Assembly: GCA_937129385.1 (NCBI GenBank)
Contig: CAKZNC010000100.1
Location: 12,349-76,348, forward strand
Reading direction: 5' to 3'
DNA: 64,000 bases
Origin: an uncultured Bacteroidota bacterium
GTDB lineage: Bacteria > Bacteroidota > Bacteroidia > Bacteroidales > GCA-2748055
The notes below the pieces were generated by a model. That model searched no databases. It was not told the DNA's origin and was given only the letters and a program-made list of their open reading frames with translations. The translations under genes and the position numbers were made by a program. Below are positions 4,465 through 52,549 of this stretch, piece after piece; the stretch's first letter is position 1; the number at the start of each line of letters is the position of its first letter.

Positions 4465-4812
4465 ATGGAGTTCAAAATTGACAAATTTGAAAACCATACT
4501 TTGATCAAAGTATTGGAAGAAAAACTGGATACGCATATCGCCCCGACACTTAAGTCGGAGCTGGTACTTGTTTCCGGGAATGGCGAAAAAAATATCGTGC
4601 TCGATCTCGAGAACTGTCGCTATTGTGATTCTTCTGGTCTGAGTGCGATCCTGGTGGCCAACAGGCTTTGCAAAAATGCAAGCGGTACATTTGTGCTGGC
4701 AGGACTGAATGATGCAGTGGAAAGACTGATCACAATCTCTCAACTCGATACGGTTCTGAACATTGCAGATTCTGTGGACGAGGCAGAAAAAATGATCAAG
4801 GAAGCTGAGTAA
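4465..4812 (+). CDS. STAS-domain protein (anti-sigma-factor antagonist family)
   Basis: 115-aa ORF of SpoIIAA/RsbV-like size and pattern. The conserved phospho-Ser motif is present in LDLENCRYCDSSGLSAIL. Confidence 0.85.
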   Translation: MEFKIDKFENHTLIKVLEEKLDTHIAPTLKSELVLVSGNGEKNIVLDLENCRYCDSSGLSAILVANRLCKNASGTFVLAGLNDAVERLITISQLDTVLNIADSVDEAEKMIKEAE

Positions 4813-10973: not shown

Positions 10974-11021
10974 CTGAGCGAGAAGAATGAATTTCATTAC
11001 CAGTAAACAAAAGAAGCTTCA

Positions 11022-11579
11022 ATGAGCTTTGATGTAAACGAGTACTACTCTAAACTAAACGGTGACGACGTGCTGATTGCCTATAAGGGTAATGTCTCCA
11101 GTGAGTTGATCAGCAACGTCCTTGAAGTTGTTGAAGCTCGTATGGATGATTACAGCGAGGCATCCAAGATCCGTAAGAAAGTCTACAATGTGCTGGTAGA
11201 AAGTCTTCAAAACCTTTACCATCATATCGAAGTGCTTCCACCAGAATTACAGAAGGATTTCGATGAAAAATTCGGGATTCTCGTCGTTTCAAGGGTAGAG
11301 GCACAATACAAGATATCAACCGGCAATTTTATTGAAACAGAAAAGGTGGCACAGTTGAAGGGGAAGATCGATAAGATCAATTCCATGAGTGCGGATGAAC
11401 TGAAAGATATGTACAAATTCATCCTCAACCACCAACGGCTGTCCGAAAAGGGAGGAGGAGGACTTGGTCTTGTTGATATAGCAAGGAAAACAGGGAATAA
11501 ACTGGAATACAAATTTCACCAGTTCAGTGATGAATATGCATTCTTTAACCTGGATGTATTTATTGATTATGAAGATTGA
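11022..11579 (+). CDS. SiaB-like GHKL-type protein (Ser/Thr) kinase
   Basis: 185-aa ORF with an N-box-like VLVESLQNLYHH and the glycine-rich ATP lid EKGGGGLGLVDIARKTG. Paired with a DUF1987 gene 24 nt downstream. Confidence 0.7.
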   Translation: MSFDVNEYYSKLNGDDVLIAYKGNVSSELISNVLEVVEARMDDYSEASKIRKKVYNVLVESLQNLYHHIEVLPPELQKDFDEKFGILVVSRVEAQYKISTGNFIETEKVAQLKGKIDKINSMSADELKDMYKFILNHQRLSEKGGGGLGLVDIARKTGNKLEYKFHQFSDEYAFFNLDVFIDYED

Positions 11580-11603
11580 ATATAACTTTTTAAAATTCAA
11601 AAT

Positions 11604-11984
11604 ATGGAACCATTGTTGATTGAAGGAACTGCAAAAACACCTACTGTTAAATTTGACGCCGGGGATGGTGTTGTTGAGATCAAAGGAAGATCTATTCCAG
11701 AAAATTCGATCGAATTTTATAAACCACTGGTTGAATGGTTGGAGGAATACAGTGCGGCACCTCAGAATCTGACACAGGTGAATGTGCAACTGGAATATTT
11801 CAATACCAGTTCCTCAAAATGTATCCTGGATGTCTTCAAGAAACTGGAAGCCATTCATAAAGGTAAAAATGAGGTGATTATTAACTGGCATTACGAAGAG
11901 GATGATGAAGACATGCTCGAGGCTGGAGAAGATTATGAATCCATCATCAGGGTTCCCTTCAAGATGATCGAGATCGTCGAATAA
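11604..11984 (+). CDS. DUF1987 / SiaC-like regulatory phosphoprotein
   Basis: 126-aa ORF with hallmark DUF1987 features: N-terminus TPTVKFDAGDGVVEIKGRSIPEN, the segment FYKPLVEWLEEY, YFNTSSSK with Thr at residue 68, and an acidic WHYEEDDEDMLE segment. Confidence 0.75.
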   Translation: MEPLLIEGTAKTPTVKFDAGDGVVEIKGRSIPENSIEFYKPLVEWLEEYSAAPQNLTQVNVQLEYFNTSSSKCILDVFKKLEAIHKGKNEVIINWHYEEDDEDMLEAGEDYESIIRVPFKMIEIVE

Positions 11985-12007
11985 CAACCTTTTCATTTAA
12001 AGAAAGT

Positions 12008-12041
12008 TGCCATCACGGGAAGCCGGGGTGGCATTTTTTTT
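12008..12041 (+). terminator. Rho-independent terminator after the SiaB/C-like pair
   Basis: The imperfect hairpin TGCCATCACGGG...CCGGGGTGGCA is followed by T8. Confidence 0.6.
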
Positions 12042-12085
12042 GGCATATGGAAAAAGAGAATGCCGAAAAGTTATACGCAATGGTG

Positions 12086-15000
12086 CTAACCTCTTTTGAA
12101 AAGGTTTTCAAATAAATCTAGCGCTCTTTTCAGTACCCTGTAATAAAGCAGGATGTATAACACAATCGTCATTAGCCAGATCACAATTATATTGACCCAT
12201 ATCGTGGGTATATAGGTTCCGAAAACCATCTTCCTGGGTGCATAGAAGTGTGCTTTAATGAAATTTGACCGGGGATCATTGTAAATAGGGTCAGTTTTCT
12301 GAATCAGCTTTCCTTTGAATTCAACGATCTTTTCAAACTCATTTTTATTGGTAACAAATTCTTCCAGGCTGCTATTGTGGTGATTTCGCTTGAGCGCCTG
12401 GAGCTTCTCAAGTTCAAAGCCCTGCTTGATCTCATTGCTCTCACGGAATGCCTTGCGATATGCCTCTGTATAAGCCTCTGAAAGTGCGCGGATGTATGCA
12501 GCTGTGTAATCAAGGATCTCATCGTTGATACGATCTGGATACAGGGAATCGATATATTTCATCTTCCCTATCTTGATGCCTTCACTGTATTCATTGAATA
12601 CCTGCCTGTCCTCATACTCCTTCTTCAGTTCATTCCTGATCAGATCAAGGTGGTTGGCAACCAGTTCGGTTTTTTCAGGATCCCGGTAACTTTCCCTGAC
12701 CACATTGAGCTTGTTCTCAATATTTTTCAACAGGTAATTGGAAGCAAACCCGGTCACGCTTTTTTTCTTTTCGGCCAGGTAAAAGTGCTTCTGGTAATCA
12801 TTCTCCTTGAACTGGTAGGTGGCAAGTGCCTCGTATGCCCAACGTGCGGTAATGATCTCACCATAGAACGGGATCCTGTCCGGTTCAGAAATCTTGGGAT
12901 TCAGGTTTTCAAATTTAACAATGATCCCGCTTAAAATAATTTGTGGGATCACCAGAAAGGGGATGAGAATATAAATGGCTACGACGGTCTTAAAACTATC
13001 GGATATAAGCAGCCCCATCACATTGGCTGATGCCCAGGCAGAGAACAGTACCAGCCAGTATTCGAAATACATGCCCCTGATCTCCATGATGCTGTTTCCG
13101 ATCAGTACAAATGTCGCTGCCTGTACAGCCGACAGGATAAGCTGAACGGCGACTTTGGAGAGTAAGTATCCCGACCAGCTGAGGTTCAGGAATGCTTCTC
13201 TTTTCAATATTTTCCGGTCCTTGATGATCTCCTCTGCACTCACTGAAAGCCCCATAAAAATCGCAACGATCACAGACATAAAAATGTATACAGGGAGATT
13301 GCTGTTTTCCGCAAGCGTATAATCAAATTTGTTGGTAACAGAGACACTGTAATATTTGACGATAAAGGCAAGCAGAAATGCAAGCAGGGGCGCCTCGAGG
13401 AAATTGATGATCATGTACTGTGTATCACTGATCTTTTTCAGTATGTCCCTTTTCAGGAATACCAGGAATTGCCTGAAGCGCGAAGGAGTTTTGAATGAGA
13501 TCTCGGGGAGGTCCTCCCTGGTGGCAGTTGGCTGCATCGCCTCCTGGTAGTCTTCCTTGAAATGGTAGCTCCACTGCTGTGGAGAGATCTTTCTTGTGTG
13601 GGTAACCTTCCCATATTCATCCAGAACACTTGTTTCCACGATATTAAAAACCTGTTCCGGGTTTACATTCCCGCATTCGTGGCACTCACTCTCATTCCAG
13701 TCGGCATGCTGCACTTTCGTTTTGAAATACTGGATGGAATCAATGGGATTCCCATTGTAAATGAGGTACCCCCCGGTATCCAGGATCAGAAGCCTGTCAA
13801 ACATCTTGAAAATATCGGAAGAGGGTTGGTGAATGACAACAAATACCAGCTTCCCTTTCAGCGACAATTCCTTCAGAAGATCCAGGATATTCTCGCTGTC
13901 CCTGCTGGAAAGACCTGAAGTGGGCTCATCCAGGAAAAGCACCGCGGGTTCACGGATCAGCTCCAGGGCGATATTCAGCCGCTTTCTTTGTCCGCCGCTG
14001 ATCTTCTTGTTCAGGGGAGACCCGACCTGGATCTCACGAATTTCATACAGTCCGAGGTTTTTTAAAACATTGTTTACAGCGGCCTCCAGCTGCTCATCAC
14101 TGTAATTGTCAAAACAAAGCTTCGCATTGTAATACAGGTTCTGGTAGACCGTCAACTCTTCGATCAGGAGGTCGTCCTGGGATACGAAACCAATGATACC
14201 GTTCACTGCAGGATCGTCACTGTGGATATCGATGCCATTTATAAGGACCGATCCTTCCGTTGGGGTATTGCTTCCGTTCAGCACATTAAGAAGCGTTGAT
14301 TTGCCTGCACCGCTTGCCCCCATGATTCCAACCAGTCGGCCCGAAGTCTCTGTAAAGCTGATGTCATGCAGACCAATGGCTCCGTTTGGAAATTTGTAAA
14401 CGATTTGATTGGCCTGGAAAACGATCCTGGACTTCACCCGGTCTTCCACGAATGAACTTACAATGTCGCTGTAATAGATGGGAATGATCTGCTGGTTCCT
14501 GATAGAGGCGCCGGTATTCAGCGGGTAGGTTTTGTATTGTTCAAGCAGCTGACCGTTAATGTAGATTTCAGCCTGTCCGATGTATTTGACAAAATAGAGG
14601 TTGGTGGATAGAATATGCAACACCCGCATCTGTCCCGAGAGGTTTTTGCGCTGGATATGTTTAGCCCCGCCCGGCAGATTCCGCCCTTTCTCCGTATCAT
14701 CCACAAAAAGGAAATGTGAAGAGGAGGCAAGCTTTTTGTCGTTGAGAACGAATTCCCTTATCGAATTGTATTCCTCGATGTTGATATTGAATGTGTCAGA
14801 TACCGTCGACACAAACTCCATCTCCTGGTCTGTCACCACATCGGCATCGGATTTGATGAACTCAAGCAGCTGTATCAGGAATACCACCTTCTGCTGCTGG
14901 GTAAGCTCTTCGTTGATGTTGGTACATATCTTGAGAACCCTTACCGATCTGCGCGCAAGGATACGGCCTGCATTCTGTGATTTTTTCTCGTCCTCTTCGG

Positions 15001-15172
15001 CGAACTTGCTGACAAACTCATCATAAATATTCAGGAATTCTTCTGCGAGTTCCCTGTTAAGCTGCTTGATCAAAAATGATTCTACTACTGCACGGCGGTC
15101 ATCAACTGAGCTTTCAGGTCTGGCAATGATGGCAAACAGCTGCATCAGCGCCTTGAGAATCTTTTCACTCAT
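12086..15172 (-). CDS. ABC-G-type transporter (NBD-TMD fusion) with N-terminal regulatory modules and C-terminal extension
   Basis: 1028-aa ORF with Walker A GASGAGKST, signature ISGGQRKR and Walker B VLFLDEPTSGLS, followed by an ABC-2-type multi-TM region. About 250 aa precede the NBD and about 230 aa follow the TMD, ending in one more TM helix. Confidence 0.85.
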   Translation of the reverse strand: MSEKILKALMQLFAIIARPESSVDDRRAVVESFLIKQLNRELAEEFLNIYDEFVSKFAEEDEKKSQNAGRILARRSVRVLKICTNINEELTQQQKVVFLIQLLEFIKSDADVVTDQEMEFVSTVSDTFNINIEEYNSIREFVLNDKKLASSSHFLFVDDTEKGRNLPGGAKHIQRKNLSGQMRVLHILSTNLYFVKYIGQAEIYINGQLLEQYKTYPLNTGASIRNQQIIPIYYSDIVSSFVEDRVKSRIVFQANQIVYKFPNGAIGLHDISFTETSGRLVGIMGASGAGKSTLLNVLNGSNTPTEGSVLINGIDIHSDDPAVNGIIGFVSQDDLLIEELTVYQNLYYNAKLCFDNYSDEQLEAAVNNVLKNLGLYEIREIQVGSPLNKKISGGQRKRLNIALELIREPAVLFLDEPTSGLSSRDSENILDLLKELSLKGKLVFVVIHQPSSDIFKMFDRLLILDTGGYLIYNGNPIDSIQYFKTKVQHADWNESECHECGNVNPEQVFNIVETSVLDEYGKVTHTRKISPQQWSYHFKEDYQEAMQPTATREDLPEISFKTPSRFRQFLVFLKRDILKKISDTQYMIINFLEAPLLAFLLAFIVKYYSVSVTNKFDYTLAENSNLPVYIFMSVIVAIFMGLSVSAEEIIKDRKILKREAFLNLSWSGYLLSKVAVQLILSAVQAATFVLIGNSIMEIRGMYFEYWLVLFSAWASANVMGLLISDSFKTVVAIYILIPFLVIPQIILSGIIVKFENLNPKISEPDRIPFYGEIITARWAYEALATYQFKENDYQKHFYLAEKKKSVTGFASNYLLKNIENKLNVVRESYRDPEKTELVANHLDLIRNELKKEYEDRQVFNEYSEGIKIGKMKYIDSLYPDRINDEILDYTAAYIRALSEAYTEAYRKAFRESNEIKQGFELEKLQALKRNHHNSSLEEFVTNKNEFEKIVEFKGKLIQKTDPIYNDPRSNFIKAHFYAPRKMVFGTYIPTIWVNIIVIWLMTIVLYILLYYRVLKRALDLFENLFKRG

Positions 15173-15289
15173 GGGTTGTCACTTTTGGTACGAATAAAGA
15201 AAAGTTGCCTGACTTTCCGAAGATAATAAATTTATGGGAAACCTGGAATGCTCCAGGGACTTATAAGCTATGCTGAATGGGACGTCTCT

Positions 15290-15856
15290 CTACGTCCAGA
15301 GATACAGCAGCAGAAAGACCAATGGAATGATGATCCCCACACCAAAAAGGATGCCACCCTGGCCCCTGATTCCCTTTTTACCACGGGCCATGAACAGTCC
15401 GGATACAGCCAGGACGATCAGCGAAAATGCAAACAGATCGGCAAAATAGGTCCAGAGCTGCTTCGGCTTGTTGTAATGCAGGAAATTCATCTCCCTGAAG
15501 ACTCTCCTGTTCCTGATCTTAATCACAGTGGCTTCCCCGGTCTCCAGGTTAACGTTGATGTGCCCTTTATCAAGATATATCAGTAATGAACCCTGGCCCG
15601 GGAAATAGTATTGTTTGTAGTTGTCCTTCTCTCCTGCTTTCTCAAGGATCTCCTGAATGTATTCCTTACCTACAGATTCCCGGTCCATGGGCCGGACTCC
15701 CTGGATGCTTTCAGACCTTTCCACAAGTGATGGATTCCAGTGACGTGCGATATGATGATTCAGTGCAATACCGGAAACACCATAGACAATTGCCATTCCA
15801 AAAAACAAATAGCCGAGTTTCCGGTGCAACCACCGGTTCCATTTTCGCCAGTTCAT
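15290..15856 (-). CDS. PepSY-associated TM-helix protein
   Basis: The N-terminus MNWRKWNRWLHRKLGYLFFGMAIVYGVSGIALNHH is typical of the PepSY_TM family, and there is a second TM pair at the C-terminus. I chose the ATG at 15856 rather than 15886 to avoid overlapping the upstream gene. Confidence 0.7.
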   Translation of the reverse strand: MNWRKWNRWLHRKLGYLFFGMAIVYGVSGIALNHHIARHWNPSLVERSESIQGVRPMDRESVGKEYIQEILEKAGEKDNYKQYYFPGQGSLLIYLDKGHINVNLETGEATVIKIRNRRVFREMNFLHYNKPKQLWTYFADLFAFSLIVLAVSGLFMARGKKGIRGQGGILFGVGIIIPLVFLLLYLWT

Positions 15857-15872
15857 GAAATAATACTTAAAA

Positions 15873-16373
15873 CTACCTGGATGCAAGCTCCTTGAATGAG
15901 GTAGCTTCTACATGGTAAGTAACATTCGTTTTGCATTCATCACCCTCTGCACCTGCTTTCATTGCCTCCTCAGTTGGGCAATTTGCGGGTTCTCCTTCAG
16001 CTTTGTTCGCTTCCTGCATCTCTCCTTCAGAATGATCAGACTCCATCTCATTGACCATAGTAGCGATCAGTTTCCCGGTAACCTCAACATTGCTCCCCTC
16101 AAGTGCAATATCAAATTCAGGGATGGATTTTGAAACACGTACCAGCAGGTTTACATCCTGGGATGAATTGGTAAGGAACATTTTCTGTCCACCGTGTTTA
16201 CAGACGTGGGAAACCATCCCGGTCACCCGAACCACATGGTCGGTCAGTTCACCGCCTTTAACGTCTATATTTTCCAGTGCAACGTCCTCTGCAGATTGAG
16301 TGTTATCATTTTTATTAGTTGAATTGCAGGAGATAAGCAGAGCTGCGACCAATATGGCAAGTACTTTTTTCAT
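15873..16373 (-). CDS. Lipoprotein of unknown function (OB-fold-like core, acidic Cys-containing tail)
   Basis: The start at 16373 gives MKKVLAILVAALLISC, a lipobox signal. The central pattern VRVTGMVSHVCKHGG...VEVTGKLIA suggests a small beta-barrel. I recognise no family. Confidence 0.6.
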   Translation of the reverse strand: MKKVLAILVAALLISCNSTNKNDNTQSAEDVALENIDVKGGELTDHVVRVTGMVSHVCKHGGQKMFLTNSSQDVNLLVRVSKSIPEFDIALEGSNVEVTGKLIATMVNEMESDHSEGEMQEANKAEGEPANCPTEEAMKAGAEGDECKTNVTYHVEATSFKELASR

Positions 16374-16439
16374 GTGCTGATTTTTTTCAATTATAATTTG
16401 ATGCAAAAATAAGAACATTTCACGATTATTCGCACTTGC

Positions 16440-16778
16440 TCACTGAAAACTGTCCAGGCAATCTTTGCAGTGATCATAGATCTCAAAAACATTGTGTAGT
16501 TGCAACACCTTGAAAAGCTCCTTAACCTCCGGATTGACATTGCAGATTTTTAGCTCACCATAGTTGTTATTGGCCGCCTTCATCAATGAAAGAAATACAC
16601 TGAAACCAGAGCTGTCAATAAATTTAATCCCGGCAAGATCGATGACCAACCGGGTATTTGGCTTGCTGTAATAGGCGAGCAGTTTTTCTTTTACCGGTTC
16701 GGTGATCAATCCGTTAAACCTGTCTTCCCCGGTGAAACTGGCTACCAGGATGCCCTGCTTTTCATTAACTTCGATCAT
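16440..16778 (-). CDS. STAS-domain protein (anti-sigma-factor antagonist family)
   Basis: 112-aa ORF with IDLAGIKFIDSSGFSVFL, which carries the conserved DSSG phospho-Ser motif. Lies 3 nt downstream of the Hpt gene. Confidence 0.85.
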   Translation of the reverse strand: MIEVNEKQGILVASFTGEDRFNGLITEPVKEKLLAYYSKPNTRLVIDLAGIKFIDSSGFSVFLSLMKAANNNYGELKICNVNPEVKELFKVLQLHNVFEIYDHCKDCLDSFQ

Positions 16779-16781
16779 GTT

Positions 16782-17123
16782 TTAGCTCTTTGAGAGATAT
16801 TGCTCCAATTCAATGAGTGCGTAACCTGAATTTTCTATAAAAGTATCGATAAGCTCTTTATAGGATTCCGGCTCAAGCCCTTCCTTGGATTTGAACTCCA
16901 GCTCTTTTAGCCGGTCCGCCTCGGATTGCATTCCCATGACTGCAACAGATGATTTGGCTTTATGTGCGACACGTGATAGATTCTCGTAATCAGATGCTTG
17001 CAGCAGCCTGGGCATCTCAATACTGTATTCTTCAATCTGTTCACGGAATATGTCGACCATTTCCCTGATGAATTTGTGGTCGTTTCCCGACATCGATTCC
17101 AGGTATGAAAGGTCTGTGATCAT
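16782..17123 (-). CDS. Hpt (histidine phosphotransfer) domain protein
   Basis: 113-aa helical protein with the Hpt signature LSRVAHKAKSSVAVMG (HxxKxS). Confidence 0.8.
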   Translation of the reverse strand: MITDLSYLESMSGNDHKFIREMVDIFREQIEEYSIEMPRLLQASDYENLSRVAHKAKSSVAVMGMQSEADRLKELEFKSKEGLEPESYKELIDTFIENSGYALIELEQYLSKS

Positions 17124-17329
17124 ATGCTTTAATTTCTCCCTGCTGTTTACCGTTGATAAATAACTATGAATCTCTAAAATTATTTTTTTATTTTTAGAAA
17201 TGAAACCCTTTTGAAGATATTTTAGTCATACCACATGGGATGTGACCCTTAATTCTGCCTTTAAAACAAATGAATGGATTCAAAGGTATGTTATTAAACC
17301 GATCAATATTAATTTGAAAACAGGTCCGA

Positions 17330-18364
17330 ATGAAACACGCAATCAGTACACTTATCCTGATCTCTGTTTTTTCTACACTTCTGAACGGACAATTGTCTGT
17401 CAGGGAGAAGAGAGATATGGATAGATTTTATAATGCAGGAGTGGAACAGCTCCGGGAAAATGATTATATCGAAGCGATCACTTCGTTTGATGAGTGTCTT
17501 GGTATTGATTCGACACATGCGAAGGCCTACATGAACAGGGGACGAGTGAAAGCCGCCCTGGGGGATCATGAAGGTGCGATCAATGACCTGGGCCAGGCTA
17601 TAAGATTTGACCAGGACCTGGGGGAGGCATTTTTTTATAAAGGATATTTCCTCTATGGGAAAGATACCACCTCCTTGCCGGTTGAATTGCTCAAAGCATC
17701 AATTTCCAAAGGATTTGAAATGCCGCAGGCACATTACCTGATCGGACTTGAATACCTGGAATCAGGAGAGGACGACAAAGCACTGATCAGTTTCAATAAG
17801 GCCATCCGACAAAAGGATGATTTTGCACTTGCATACCATGAGCGTGCCGGTATCAAGCGTAAGATGGGCGACTTTAACGGTGCGTTGTACGATTACAAAT
17901 CTGCAGTAAATTACCGTGAAGACTTCCCCGTGGCTTTTAACAATATGGGTTCAGTAAAAATCGTTCTTGGAGATTTTGAAGGCGCAATACAAGACTTTTC
18001 CACAGCCATTGAACAGTCATCAGATCTCCACCTGGCATATAACAACAGGGGGTATGCAAACTACCAGTTGGGCAATCTTGATACAGCACTGGAAGATTTC
18101 AGGAAAGCGATCACCCTTCAGCCAGCATTTATGGAGGCCAAACTGAATACCGCAAGTGTGCTGACAAAACTGGATCAGCTGGATGAATCGCTGGCAATGC
18201 TCGATCAGGTTATACAGGAAAATCCTGAGGAGGGTGAATTGTACCTGAATCGCGGTTTGGTGAAGGAGATGAAGGGTGAGGTTATTGAAGCGTGCAATGA
18301 CTGGAACAAGGCACTGGAACTTGGAGAAGTGCAGGCCTCGGAATATTTAAAAGAATGCAAATAA
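17330..18364 (+). CDS. Tetratricopeptide-repeat protein, secreted
   Basis: 344-aa ORF with a signal peptide and repeated TPR consensus (A..Y.NRG.....G....A..D...AI..). Confidence 0.85.
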   Translation: MKHAISTLILISVFSTLLNGQLSVREKRDMDRFYNAGVEQLRENDYIEAITSFDECLGIDSTHAKAYMNRGRVKAALGDHEGAINDLGQAIRFDQDLGEAFFYKGYFLYGKDTTSLPVELLKASISKGFEMPQAHYLIGLEYLESGEDDKALISFNKAIRQKDDFALAYHERAGIKRKMGDFNGALYDYKSAVNYREDFPVAFNNMGSVKIVLGDFEGAIQDFSTAIEQSSDLHLAYNNRGYANYQLGNLDTALEDFRKAITLQPAFMEAKLNTASVLTKLDQLDESLAMLDQVIQENPEEGELYLNRGLVKEMKGEVIEACNDWNKALELGEVQASEYLKECK

Positions 18365-18365
18365 A

Positions 18366-20462
18366 ATGAATGCGATTATGAACAGGAGAAGATCACTATT
18401 GTTCTTTATCATCTTAAGCGCAGGTACTGTACTCTTTGCCCAGGAACAGGTTGATATCAGGAAGAAAGAATTCAGACAGACAGATCAAACCGAAGGGTTC
18501 AAAGAAGCATGGAAAAGTGTCAAAGAGGGTGATAAATATTTTGAACAGGGCATAGGCACCTATAAAATAGCCAGGGACCATTACCTGTTTGCAAACCAGT
18601 TCAATGGTTTTAACCCGGAACTGAACTATAAAATCGGGATATGTTATCTGCATACCGATGATAAATTTGAAGCCATTGATTACCTCCTGAAAGCATATGA
18701 GCTGGACCCTGATGTGGCGGCAGATATCAAGTACCAGATCGGCAGGGCTTACCACCTCGTTGAGGAATTTGACAAAGCACGGCAGTTTTACCTGGAATAC
18801 CGCGATGAAATTCCGGAAGAGGAACGATCCGCTGAACTAAGCGACCGGATCGACAAACTGATCATAGAATGTAGAAATGGGGATGAATTGACAAGGGAGC
18901 CACGGCGCGTGATCATTCAAAACCTTGGTGAAGATGTGAATTCAATCTATGACGATTATAACCCGGTTTATGCATACAACGATACTGCATTGTATTTTAC
19001 TTCACGACGTCCTTCCGGAAAAAAACCCAAACGCAATGAGCTGGACAACAAATACTTTGAGAATATCTTCCTGAGTCCGGTTACCGAAGAGGGATTTGAT
19101 GCTGCATATCCATTGGGAAAGCCATTTAGGGAAAAAGGGAATATCTCTCTTGTTGAGGTGGCAGCAGACGGTGGCCGTGTATTCGTATATGTGGGCGGAG
19201 AAAATGGAGGTGATATAGAGGAAGCACCATTTTTGCAGGAAAAGGACAAGTGGAAAAAGCCGAAATCAGTCTCCAAAAGAATCAATACCGATTATGCCGA
19301 AACAACAGCCTCCCTTGCACCCGGTGGCAAGGTGATCTACTTCGTTTCCGCAGATCCGGAATTGTCGAACGGTGGCAAGGATATCTTTGTATCCCGACTG
19401 GACGCCAAAGGGAAATGGGGTTTGCCGGTCAATATAGGCGGACTCATCAATTCAAGATATGATGAGGAGGGCGTGTTCCTGACGGCAGACGGTCAAACCA
19501 TGTACTTTGCATCGCGCGGCCACAATACCATGGGTGGTTTTGATGTTTTCAAAAGCGAGAAGGATGAAAATGACAGGTGGGGACCACCCGAAAATCTTGG
19601 CTACCCTATAAATACACCGGAAGATGAGGTTTTTTACATTACAGATTCTACCGGGGTGTATGGATATTTTTCAACAATCAGGGAAGGCGGTATCGGTGGA
19701 CGCGATATTTATAAAGTCATCTCACTGGGATCAGAAAAAGAGGTAACCACCATGACAAGGGATGAACTGGTTGCAGGACTCCGATACCTTGATATCGATC
19801 CGTTTCTGACACTACCGGATCCTGTTACTGTCGATACTACATTGATCCTGAGCGGACAGGTGAGGGACACTGTTGGAGATGCAGATACAACAGTTATGGC
19901 CGGACTAAGTTTTATGAATCCTGAAACAGGAGAAGTTGTTGCGCGAGCAATGACCGGTACAGACGGGTTTTACAGGGCCCGGATTCCCGAGCCCAGGATG
20001 TATGGTGTGGAGATCAATGCAACCGGGTACCTTTATTACCTCGACATACTTGACTTGTCTGGACTGAATCCGGATGAGCCGGCAGAACGTGATTTCTACC
20101 TGCAAAAAATTGAGGTAGGTACCAAGGTTGTACTGGATAATATCTACTTTGAAACCGGGAAATCAGTACTCACGGTTGCATCCTATGAGTCGCTTGACCA
20201 GGTCGCAAGATTCCTGGAAAATAATGAATCGGTGCGCCTCGAAATATCAGGTCATACCGATAATACGGGATCACTTCGTGTCAATACCAGACTCTCCGAA
20301 GCCAGGGCAAAAGCCGTGGTGGACTACCTGGAGGGAAGAGGGATTGATGCAGGCAGACTGGAGTACAAGGGGTATGCCGATACACAGCCTGTTGCTTCCA
20401 ATGATACACCGGAAGGAAGGGAGATGAACAGGCGTGTGGAGTTCAAGGTGCTGAGTAAATAG
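18366..20462 (+). CDS. OmpA-family protein with TPR, TolB-like beta-propeller repeats and C-terminal OmpA domain
   Basis: 698-aa ORF with a signal peptide, repeated propeller-like motifs (YFTSRR, YFVSADP...GGKDIFVS, MYFASRGHNTMGGFDVFKS), and a C-terminal OmpA domain (NIYFETGKSVL...ISGHTDNTGS...NRRVEFKV). Confidence 0.85.
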   Translation: MNAIMNRRRSLLFFIILSAGTVLFAQEQVDIRKKEFRQTDQTEGFKEAWKSVKEGDKYFEQGIGTYKIARDHYLFANQFNGFNPELNYKIGICYLHTDDKFEAIDYLLKAYELDPDVAADIKYQIGRAYHLVEEFDKARQFYLEYRDEIPEEERSAELSDRIDKLIIECRNGDELTREPRRVIIQNLGEDVNSIYDDYNPVYAYNDTALYFTSRRPSGKKPKRNELDNKYFENIFLSPVTEEGFDAAYPLGKPFREKGNISLVEVAADGGRVFVYVGGENGGDIEEAPFLQEKDKWKKPKSVSKRINTDYAETTASLAPGGKVIYFVSADPELSNGGKDIFVSRLDAKGKWGLPVNIGGLINSRYDEEGVFLTADGQTMYFASRGHNTMGGFDVFKSEKDENDRWGPPENLGYPINTPEDEVFYITDSTGVYGYFSTIREGGIGGRDIYKVISLGSEKEVTTMTRDELVAGLRYLDIDPFLTLPDPVTVDTTLILSGQVRDTVGDADTTVMAGLSFMNPETGEVVARAMTGTDGFYRARIPEPRMYGVEINATGYLYYLDILDLSGLNPDEPAERDFYLQKIEVGTKVVLDNIYFETGKSVLTVASYESLDQVARFLENNESVRLEISGHTDNTGSLRVNTRLSEARAKAVVDYLEGRGIDAGRLEYKGYADTQPVASNDTPEGREMNRRVEFKVLSK

Positions 20463-51958: not shown

Positions 51959-52549
51959 TTACGAACTGGTCAGGATCAGGTTACGCTCATTGATCATTTT
52001 TCGCAGGTTGATCAGTGCATATCTCATTCTCCCCAGGGCTGTGTTAATGCTCACACCGGTATGATCGGCGATCTCTTTAAAGCTTAGTCCGCCGAAATGC
52101 CTGAGCAGCACAACTTCCCGTTGATCATCAGGCAATTCATTGATCAGCTTTCGAAGATCTTTTTTGATCTGACTACTGACCATCAGTTGTTCAATATTGT
52201 CGTCAGATAGCTTCTTGCTATTGAACAGGTCCATTTCTGTATCGTCATTCGATACGGAGTTCAACTGCTTTTCCTTCCTGAAATGGTCAATGATCAGGTT
52301 GTGGGCAATACGGATCACCCAGGAAAGGAACCGGCCATTGTCACGGTATTTGCCCCTACGCAGTGATTGAATGACTTTAATAAAGGTTTCCTGGAAGAGG
52401 TCTTCCGCCAATGCCTGGTTCTTAATTGTCAGGAGAATATAGGTATATACCTTGGTTCTGTGTCGATTGATCAACGTTTCAATACAAGATTCTTCACCAT
52501 TGAGAAACGCTTGCACCAACTCCTGGTCGCTCATTTTTTTTGTTTTCAA
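51959..52549 (-). CDS. ECF-type RNA polymerase sigma-70 family factor
   Basis: 196-aa ORF with region 2 (AEDLFQETFIKV...FLSWVIRIAHNLIIDHFRK) and region 4 HTH (LSFKEIADHTGVSINTALGRMRYA). Confidence 0.88.
   Translation of the reverse strand: MKTKKMSDQELVQAFLNGEESCIETLINRHRTKVYTYILLTIKNQALAEDLFQETFIKVIQSLRRGKYRDNGRFLSWVIRIAHNLIIDHFRKEKQLNSVSNDDTEMDLFNSKKLSDDNIEQLMVSSQIKKDLRKLINELPDDQREVVLLRHFGGLSFKEIADHTGVSINTALGRMRYALINLRKMINERNLILTSS

Follow-up and report, generated by a model that had tools for sequence, protein, structure and literature searches.

Within a 64,000-nucleotide stretch of DNA from an uncultured Bacteroidales bacterium (contig CAKZNC010000100.1, positions 12,349 to 76,348; hereafter the window, whose own numbering is used throughout), two short adjacent genes on the minus strand encode a stand-alone histidine phosphotransfer (Hpt) protein of 113 amino acids (aa) and a single-domain STAS protein of 112 aa that belongs to the anti-sigma-antagonist class. 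The Hpt gene (16782..17123) is read from 17123 to 16782 and ends in a TAA stop codon, and the STAS gene (16440..16778) begins at 16778 after a gap of 3 nucleotides (nt), AAC. Translational coupling of the two genes is plausible from this spacing. The open reading frames (ORFs), their coordinates, the gaps between them and the motifs AHKAKSS and DSSG, all listed in a preliminary description of the locus, were recovered as given there, and the domains pass curated cut-offs.

The Hpt protein scored 29.3 bits against the Pfam model PF01627, for which the curated cut-off is 24.6, and its predicted phospho-accepting residue, His54, lies in AHKAKSSVAVMG, within the signature AHKAKSS (motif context AH54KAKSSVAVMG). 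The residues A53-H54-K55-A56-K57 and G64 are invariant among 75 orthologues, and the conserved histidine pattern of the Hpt domain (HxxKG/S…G) is present. In a profile comparison, His54 falls on the GHFLKGSSATLG histidine of PDB entry 8pbw, annotated as 'HPt domain-containing protein', and the same profile also matched YPD1.

The STAS protein passed both the Pfam model PF01740 (62.9 bits, cut-off 22.6) and the NCBIfam model TIGR00377 (63.5 bits, cut-off 53.45). On the SpoIIAA equivalog model it scored 49.2, below the cut-off of 114.75, and it is therefore not SpoIIAA itself. Its best solved relatives are nonetheless structures of SpoIIAA (PDB 1auz and 1th8), to whose DSSG motif the residues D55-S56-S57-G58 are aligned, so that the putative phospho-acceptor Ser56, found in the segment FIDSSGF, stands in register with the serine of that motif, Ser58, the phosphorylated residue of SpoIIAA. 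Among the 75 orthologues, D55, S56 and G58 are invariant, and the phosphorylatable serine sits, as in other proteins of this kind, in a DSSG motif at the start of helix 2. We infer a SpoIIAA/RsbV/HsbA-class antagonist, whose binding partner would be set by the phosphorylation of Ser56.

Homologues were collected from one genome per GTDB species, which gave 80 loci, all but one of them in metagenome-assembled genomes (MAGs) of Bacteroidales/Bacteroidota. ORFs were called in each locus and matched to the proteins of the window. Six loci were left out: two at contig ends (L058 and L070), two in which the match is a hybrid kinase with a C-terminal Hpt domain (L068 and L085), and two with a paralogous Hpt in another context (L073 and L077). 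The other 74 are informative, having a stand-alone orthologous Hpt and sufficient downstream sequence, and in 74 of the 74 the STAS gene directly follows the Hpt gene on the same strand. The gaps range from -8 to +63 nt, with a mode of 11 and then commonly 8 or 15, and some of the pairs overlap by 1 to 8 nt. Hpt identity across the loci falls from 75% down to 41%.

The adjacency was also kept when the look-ups started from the STAS side. The most distant STAS homologues are always preceded by an Hpt gene, with a divergent TPR gene and a convergent clpB as flanks, and the two genes remain together where clpB or a flavin reductase gene has been inserted downstream. The preliminary description had proposed a dedicated Hpt–STAS unit and had made the proposal depend, among other things, on conservation of the adjacency outside the source genome; because all the informative loci keep the pair, the proposal stands. 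Judged by its gene layout, the pair is an autonomous bicistronic operon in a clade of uncultured Bacteroidales, since it survives rearrangements and is bounded, in several genomes, by the divergent TPR gene and the convergent clpB. The sequence of the window recurs, with identical gene order, in mat and sediment metagenomes.

In the window, the two genes share a reading frame and are separated by TAA AAC (16779-16784), so that read-through would give a 226-aa fusion. A conserved fusion by read-through or frameshift was considered and rejected: the gaps of the orthologues are not multiples of three, and read-through is therefore not a conserved feature. The common frame is probably a coincidence here. 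Fusions of Hpt to STAS were also looked for in the top 150 Hpt-family representatives and in the 120 STAS homologues listed, and neither set has one. Two of the loci are unusual in other ways. One (L015, JAGYNX010000356.1) comes from a MAG titled 'Spirochaetes bacterium' although its Hpt–STAS–lipoprotein block is of the usual Bacteroidales kind, and its placement in that MAG is probably a binning error. In the other (L023, CAVTME010000003.1) the syntenic block occurs twice, inverted, with the majority of the ORFs fragmented, which has the look of a frameshifted long-read assembly artefact and not of biology.

The ancestry of the Hpt protein could be approached by homology searches. Close homologues number 447 and are almost uniformly about 110 aa long; those with a named source are from Bacteroidales MAGs. 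When 1.84 billion representatives were searched with a profile, 4563 relatives were obtained at E<=0.001, 566 of them at E<=1e-10. The majority of the best 150 are stand-alone proteins of about 110-120 aa, and the longer ones scanned among them have the arrangement REC-Hpt (receiver followed by Hpt) or HisKA-HATPase-REC-Hpt, with a STAS domain in none. Outside the orthologues, the sequences closest to the Hpt of the window are REC-Hpt proteins and Hpt domains that are either part of CHASE8/HAMP hybrid kinases or encoded directly after them. The operon of this sister group consists of a gene for a PD40-repeat or unannotated large protein, a DUF4154 gene, the CHASE8/HAMP hybrid kinase gene and the Hpt gene; Hpt is sometimes fused to the kinase, and a STAS gene is never present. 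Such operons recur in Bacteroidota (L068 8054-10342 and L085 8060-10339, as well as L077, L089 and L090). Their kinship with kinase-fused and kinase-following domains places the Hpt of the window in a working phosphorelay family. Because the sister Hpts are fused to or follow hybrid kinases, the protein is, as far as homology can tell, a genuine phosphorelay module that has been unlinked from its kinase and has gained a STAS partner. The CHASE8/HAMP hybrid kinase of the sister operons is a candidate type for its cognate kinase.

Between the Hpt gene and the divergent TPR gene lies a conserved, promoter/operator-like block, GGTTTCATTTCTAAAAATAAAAAAATAATTTTAG (17174..17207, minus strand), which is common to both genes. 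It is nearly invariant in about 60 of the 74 loci, and its conservation exceeds that of the surrounding genes. In 50 of the 74 loci, the core CTAAAAATAA lies no more than 120 nt before the Hpt gene; it has 7 occurrences elsewhere in 2.3 Mb (both strands) and is unique within the window. A second block lies nearer the Hpt start codon (17150..17165, minus strand), probably in the 5' untranslated region; its variant in the window is AGTTATTTATCAACGG and its consensus AAGAAGTTTTCAACCTA, and 39 of the 74 loci have GTTTTCAAC in the last 60 nt before the Hpt gene. Read towards Hpt, the first block has the spacing TTTC-N19-TAATTTTA, similar to that of a Bacteroidetes -33/-7 promoter, and a -7-like box is also found on the opposite strand of the intergenic element. 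The element is probably a compact bidirectional promoter/operator. The ends of the element (17150-17207) form an imperfect palindrome. The exact box TAnnTTTG is not enriched upstream of Hpt (12 of 72 loci), the conserved element there being the variant TAATTTTA. No RNA family of Rfam was matched within 11000-18500.

The preliminary description had placed the pair at the head of a co-directional run, which does not hold up as a single operon. Downstream on the minus strand are a gene for a 166-aa lipoprotein (15873..16373), one for a PepSY_TM_like_2 membrane protein (15290..15856) and one for a large ABC protein. The lipoprotein has no Pfam or NCBIfam match, and MKKVLAILVAALLISC comprises its signal peptide and lipobox; its ATG, at 16373, lies 66 nt after the STAS gene. 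After a further 16 nt comes the ATG of the PepSY_TM gene, at 15856, whose product scored 44.1 bits against PF16357 (cut-off 27), and 117 nt beyond that gene is the ATG of the ABC gene, at 15172. No more than 41 of 59 loci have the lipoprotein and PepSY_TM genes immediately after STAS. In several lineages, clpB (on the opposite strand) or a flavin reductase gene splits STAS from the rest; the lipoprotein and PepSY_TM genes then remain linked to the ABC gene. The PepSY_TM gene always accompanies the lipoprotein gene.

The gap between the STAS and lipoprotein genes also contains TATTTTTG (16404..16411, minus strand), a match to the Bacteroidetes -7 box TAnnTTTG, situated 38 nt before the lipoprotein ATG. 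The background of TAnnTTTG is 0.38 per kb per strand. It occurs within 80 nt past the STAS stop codon in 23 of 72 loci, mostly at +7, against about 3% expected, and TATTTTTG is a candidate for a separate promoter of the lipoprotein gene. A scan for σ70-type promoters and terminators gave sites no more numerous than in shuffled sequence, and the same scan showed no minus-strand terminator between the STAS and lipoprotein genes. Around the pair, a TPR gene is retained upstream in 65 of 70 loci and an OmpA-like (PorE/CHU_0125-like) gene upstream in 60 of 62; 40 of 42 have the ABC gene no more than 8 kb away in the orientation of the pair, and a SiaC/SiaB gene pair is convergent behind the ABC gene in 33 of 42. 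The unrelated gene gcvT is usually nearby as well, so linkage in the wider block is weak evidence of shared function. From gene order, the five-gene run is synteny and not a single operon; the lipoprotein and PepSY_TM genes are neighbours outside the Hpt–STAS unit.

Two genes of partner-switch type lie on the far side of the ABC gene, at about 4.5 kb from the pair, and converge on the ABC gene. The gene at 11022..11579 (plus strand) encodes a SiaB-family partner-switch Ser/Thr kinase (DUF6272; NF038262, 160.6 bits, cut-off 85), which matches P. aeruginosa SiaB in the solved SiaB–SiaC complex PDB 6kko (chain A; E=1.8e-10). It is followed by the gene for a SiaC-family (DUF1987) phosphoprotein with a STAS-like fold (11604..11984, plus strand; 126 aa; PF09345, 151.6 bits), which matches 6kko chain C (E=1.7e-20), with FNTSS aligned to LNTSS and the threonine of NTSS conserved. 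The SiaC equivalog score is 100.9, below the cut-off of 150, and the assignment is therefore made at family level only. SiaC is 87-96% identical across loci, with a mean p-distance of 0.07 versus 0.35 for GcvT (about 60% identical), an unusually strong constraint for a 126-aa regulator. Neither a SiaA PP2C phosphatase nor a SiaD diguanylate cyclase was seen in the window or in the syntenic loci, PP2C having been scanned in the window.

The ABC gene (12086..15172, minus strand) encodes a 1028-aa ABC-G-type exporter with ABC_tran and ABC2_membrane domains. Its N-terminal 250 residues (window 14393-15172) were modelled by AlphaFold2 (AF2) with a predicted local distance difference test score (pLDDT) of 91.7, as a TerB-like helical domain plus a β-sandwich. 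The TerB match is weak here and is called in homologues. For the β-sandwich, at about residues 150-235 (window 14468-14725), all top Foldseek matches in PDB are FHA domains (probability 0.9-1.0), with E-values of only 3e-3 to 0.1, and by these weak E-values the fold is assigned as FHA-like. The position of SiaC beside an exporter with such a predicted domain suggests phospho-dependent control of the exporter; that SiaC itself is a candidate ligand of the FHA-like domain is speculation.

On the other side of the pair, the divergent unit (17330..20462, plus strand) begins with the TPR gene (17330-18364) and continues with a gene for a TPR/PD40/OmpA protein (18366-20462) that resembles PorE and CHU_0125, at scores below the equivalog cut-offs. 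PorE belongs to type IX secretion and CHU_0125 to an outer-membrane integrity family, and the divergent unit stands beside the pair in >90% of loci. The window has a second single-domain STAS anti-sigma-antagonist gene (4465-4812, plus strand; 115 aa) with an intact YCDSSG, flanked on one side by the gene for ribosomal protein S1 and on the other by one for a tRNase Z-like protein, with no adjacent kinase or phosphatase gene. The only sigma factor gene seen in the window, of extracytoplasmic function (ECF) type, lies 35 kb away from the pair, at 51959-52549 (minus strand); an adjacent anti-sigma gene was not identified.

In the preliminary description, the pair was taken as a possible junction between phosphorelay and partner switch, of which no characterised example was known to its author. 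There is one, however: in P. aeruginosa, hptB, PA3346 (hsbR) and PA3347 (hsbA) form an operon (PMC2904497; PMC8256260), and HptB binds the receiver of a PP2C/kinase regulator, which sets the phosphorylation of the STAS protein HsbA at Ser56 (PMC2904497; PMC8256260; PMC5085249; PMC6482189). By analogy, the Bacteroidales pair may be a junction of the same two kinds of circuit. The explanation we favour, with a probability of roughly 0.45, is a phosphorelay-controlled partner switch like HptB–HsbR–HsbA, for which the receiver-phosphatase and the serine kinase would be encoded elsewhere. Hybrid histidine kinases, also encoded elsewhere, would phosphorylate Hpt at His54; phosphorylated Hpt would then transfer its phosphate to the receiver domain of an unlinked PP2C phosphatase or phosphatase/kinase, which would set the phosphorylation of STAS at Ser56 in opposition to a serine kinase; and STAS, in its phosphorylated or unphosphorylated form, would sequester or release an output protein. 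Every phosphotransfer and binding step in this scheme, and the existence of an unlinked receiver-phosphatase and kinase, we infer from the Pseudomonas pathway. HptB-like wiring is supported by the retention of the pair in all informative loci, the invariant His54 and Ser56 motifs, the phosphorelay kinship of Hpt, the alignment of STAS with SpoIIAA, the upstream element and the Pseudomonas precedent.

Several observations weigh against this wiring. A scan of the sizeable ORFs in the 64-kb window detected neither a HisKA/HATPase histidine kinase nor a receiver or PP2C domain. With a hidden Markov model (HMM), receivers were also sought up to 10 kb on either side of the pair in all 74 loci (1.16 Mb), the PP2C scan covering the 64-kb window only. 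They were found solely in L074, which has a single REC, and in L075, which encodes two hybrid kinases as well as a REC-HisKA protein; no protein of either locus is built like a receiver-phosphatase. The receiver-PP2C and the serine kinase must hence be assumed to exist at unlinked sites, whereas the three Pseudomonas genes form one operon. In addition, the 74 loci are not 74 independent observations, because they have inherited synteny in common, with the unrelated gcvT usually nearby too. The absence of partner genes reported in the preliminary description was confirmed for histidine kinases, receivers and PP2C throughout the window, but not for partner-switch kinases, given the SiaB gene nearby. 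No RsbW/SpoIIAB-type kinase or PP2C that could serve the STAS protein was found in the operon or the window, and the SiaB-family kinase is the only one of its kind there.

An unlinked regulator would not be needed if Hpt and STAS bound each other directly, with no receiver-phosphatase between them. The phosphorylation of Ser56 would then decide whether STAS sequesters Hpt, and so gate the phosphorelay, or else phosphorylated and unphosphorylated Hpt would differ in their affinity for STAS, with Hpt replacing the 'anti-sigma' partner. It speaks for such coupling that Hpt and STAS are never separated, while every other neighbour is lost or displaced somewhere, that receiver and histidine kinase genes have nowhere in the clade come to lie beside the pair, and that the window, unlike the Pseudomonas operon, has no PP2C. 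Yet fusions of the two proteins are missing from the best 150 Hpt representatives and the 120 STAS homologues listed, and the partial correlation of the Hpt and STAS distance matrices (r=0.17; 15 loci, controlled for GcvT and THUMP) is no higher than for unrelated neighbours. A single-sequence concatenation of Hpt and STAS in AF2 gave a low-confidence model (pLDDT 49.6; predicted template modelling score, pTM, 0.43), with five to six Hpt helices at pLDDT <50, and an Hpt–STAS complex is without precedent in the literature searched. We regard direct coupling as unlikely, and slightly more so the specific form in which the phosphorylation of one partner controls binding to, or phosphate flow through, the other without any receiver-PP2C. 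If true, a direct partnership would be a partner switch gating a His-Asp phosphorelay, or the reverse, and thus a new joining of the two logics, and it would explain why no receiver, kinase or phosphatase gene joined the operon in this clade.

A wider circuit was also considered, in which the pair, SiaB, SiaC and the TerB–FHA-like ABC exporter form one module, SiaB or a shared phosphatase under Hpt control acts on both SiaC and STAS, and the output is exporter activity. The synteny of the ABC gene (40/42) and of SiaC/SiaB (33/42) fits this, as do the FHA-like fold of the exporter, a domain type that binds phosphothreonine, and the SiaC motif with its phosphorylated threonine; SiaC-type proteins have been proposed as regulators of adjacent proteins (PMC8457831). 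SiaB also gives a weak match to the slr1658 superfamily, and STAS a weak one to the slr1659 superfamily; both are leads only. Three loci (L075, L074 and L080), however, are without a co-directional ABC/SiaBC block beside the pair, in several genomes clpB or other genes have come between the pair and the ABC gene, and gcvT is equally syntenic, so that linkage alone is weak evidence. Moreover, FHA domains read phosphothreonine and the STAS site is a serine, and the FHA assignment, with its putative phosphothreonine binding, comes from weak Foldseek E-values. A module of this extent appears still less probable than direct coupling. It is more improbable again that the two genes are merely co-transcribed from a shared promoter by historical accident and slow rearrangement in one clade, without a functional relation. 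All the loci do belong to one order-level group with strong background synteny, in which gcvT, TPR and OmpA genes are kept too, and there are Hpt relatives with no neighbouring STAS (L073, L077, L086, L089 and L090). But retention was perfect through several independent rearrangements of both flanks, the gaps are operon-like, including overlaps of 1 to 8 nt, a dedicated upstream element is conserved, and functionally unrelated genes rarely keep such spacing down to 41% protein identity. Finally, STAS could serve the downstream ABC transporter as an accessory subunit in the manner of MlaB, for which a weak NCBIfam match to MlaB (21.2 bits, E=2.9e-4) and the co-directional ABC gene speak. This role was rejected as very improbable: the score is far under the cut-off of 90, while the antagonist models are passed, in rearranged loci it is Hpt, not the ABC gene, that STAS accompanies, and the ABC protein is of ABC-G type, not MlaF.

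Partner switches and phosphorelays are among the main decision circuits of bacteria, and to our knowledge the only well-studied STAS switch fed by an Hpt protein is the Pseudomonas HptB pathway. A minimal Hpt–STAS operon, kept without exception in a large clade of uncultured Bacteroidales, may be a simple system in which to find the missing receiver-phosphatase and the output of the phosphorelay-controlled switch proposed here or, were the coupling direct, a new coupling mechanism. The upstream element, SiaB/SiaC and the FHA-like ABC exporter offer experimental handles.

Of the known partner switches, those of Bacillus (SpoIIAA/SpoIIAB/SpoIIE and RsbV/RsbW/RsbU) resemble the locus in their STAS component, which passes the anti-sigma-antagonist models with the phospho-serine aligned. 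Unlike them, it has no adjacent RsbW/SpoIIAB kinase, PP2C or alternative sigma gene, and the Bacillus operons contain no Hpt gene. In the SiaABC system, SiaB holds the position of the anti-sigma-factor kinase (PMC7647112) and SiaC has a STAS-like fold (PMC7647112; PMC8457831). The genes behind the exporter recall SiaABCD of P. aeruginosa in combining a SiaB-family kinase with a SiaC-family phosphoprotein that keeps the NTSS threonine, and they differ from it in having no SiaA, no SiaD and an ABC exporter as neighbour. The nearest relatives of the Hpt protein, in ArcB/TorS-type hybrid kinases with C-terminal Hpt and in the CHASE8–HAMP hybrid kinase and Hpt operons of Bacteroidota, are fused to the kinase or encoded right after it, with no STAS, whereas in the Bacteroidales pair the kinase is unlinked and STAS follows. 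The literature searched contained no description of Hpt–STAS pairs, of the Bacteroidales pair or of SiaB/SiaC in Bacteroidota, and no paper on partner switching in that phylum; other systems in which a two-component signal reaches a partner switch are described in PMC10950880 and PMC4574943.

The closest parallel is HptB–HsbR–HsbA of Pseudomonas, including the P. putida hsbAR-hptB cluster. In both, a stand-alone Hpt and a single-domain STAS protein of DSSG type are encoded in one operon, as judged here from the 3-nt gap and the conserved adjacency, and the phosphorylatable serine is Ser56 in both. In the Pseudomonas pathway, a His-Asp phosphorelay fed by several kinases is connected with a partner switch that works by Ser phosphorylation (PMC2904497; PMC8256260; PMC5085249; PMC6482189), and the outputs of the pathway are control of FlgM/σ28 and RpoS and the cyclase HsbD. 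Unlike in Pseudomonas, HsbR, which unites receiver, PP2C and kinase, was not found in the operon or the 64-kb window, nor was any receiver-phosphatase layout in the flanks of the loci, and so a receiver–PP2C(–kinase) regulator is not part of the same cluster. The Bacteroidales Hpt and STAS sequences are not close orthologues of the Pseudomonas proteins. A junction of the two signalling logics through Hpt and STAS is, then, already known in Pseudomonas, and what differs is a stand-alone pair with no linked receiver, histidine kinase or PP2C. By this comparison, the Bacteroidales pair is most likely a stripped-down relative of Pseudomonas HptB–HsbR–HsbA and not a new signalling logic.

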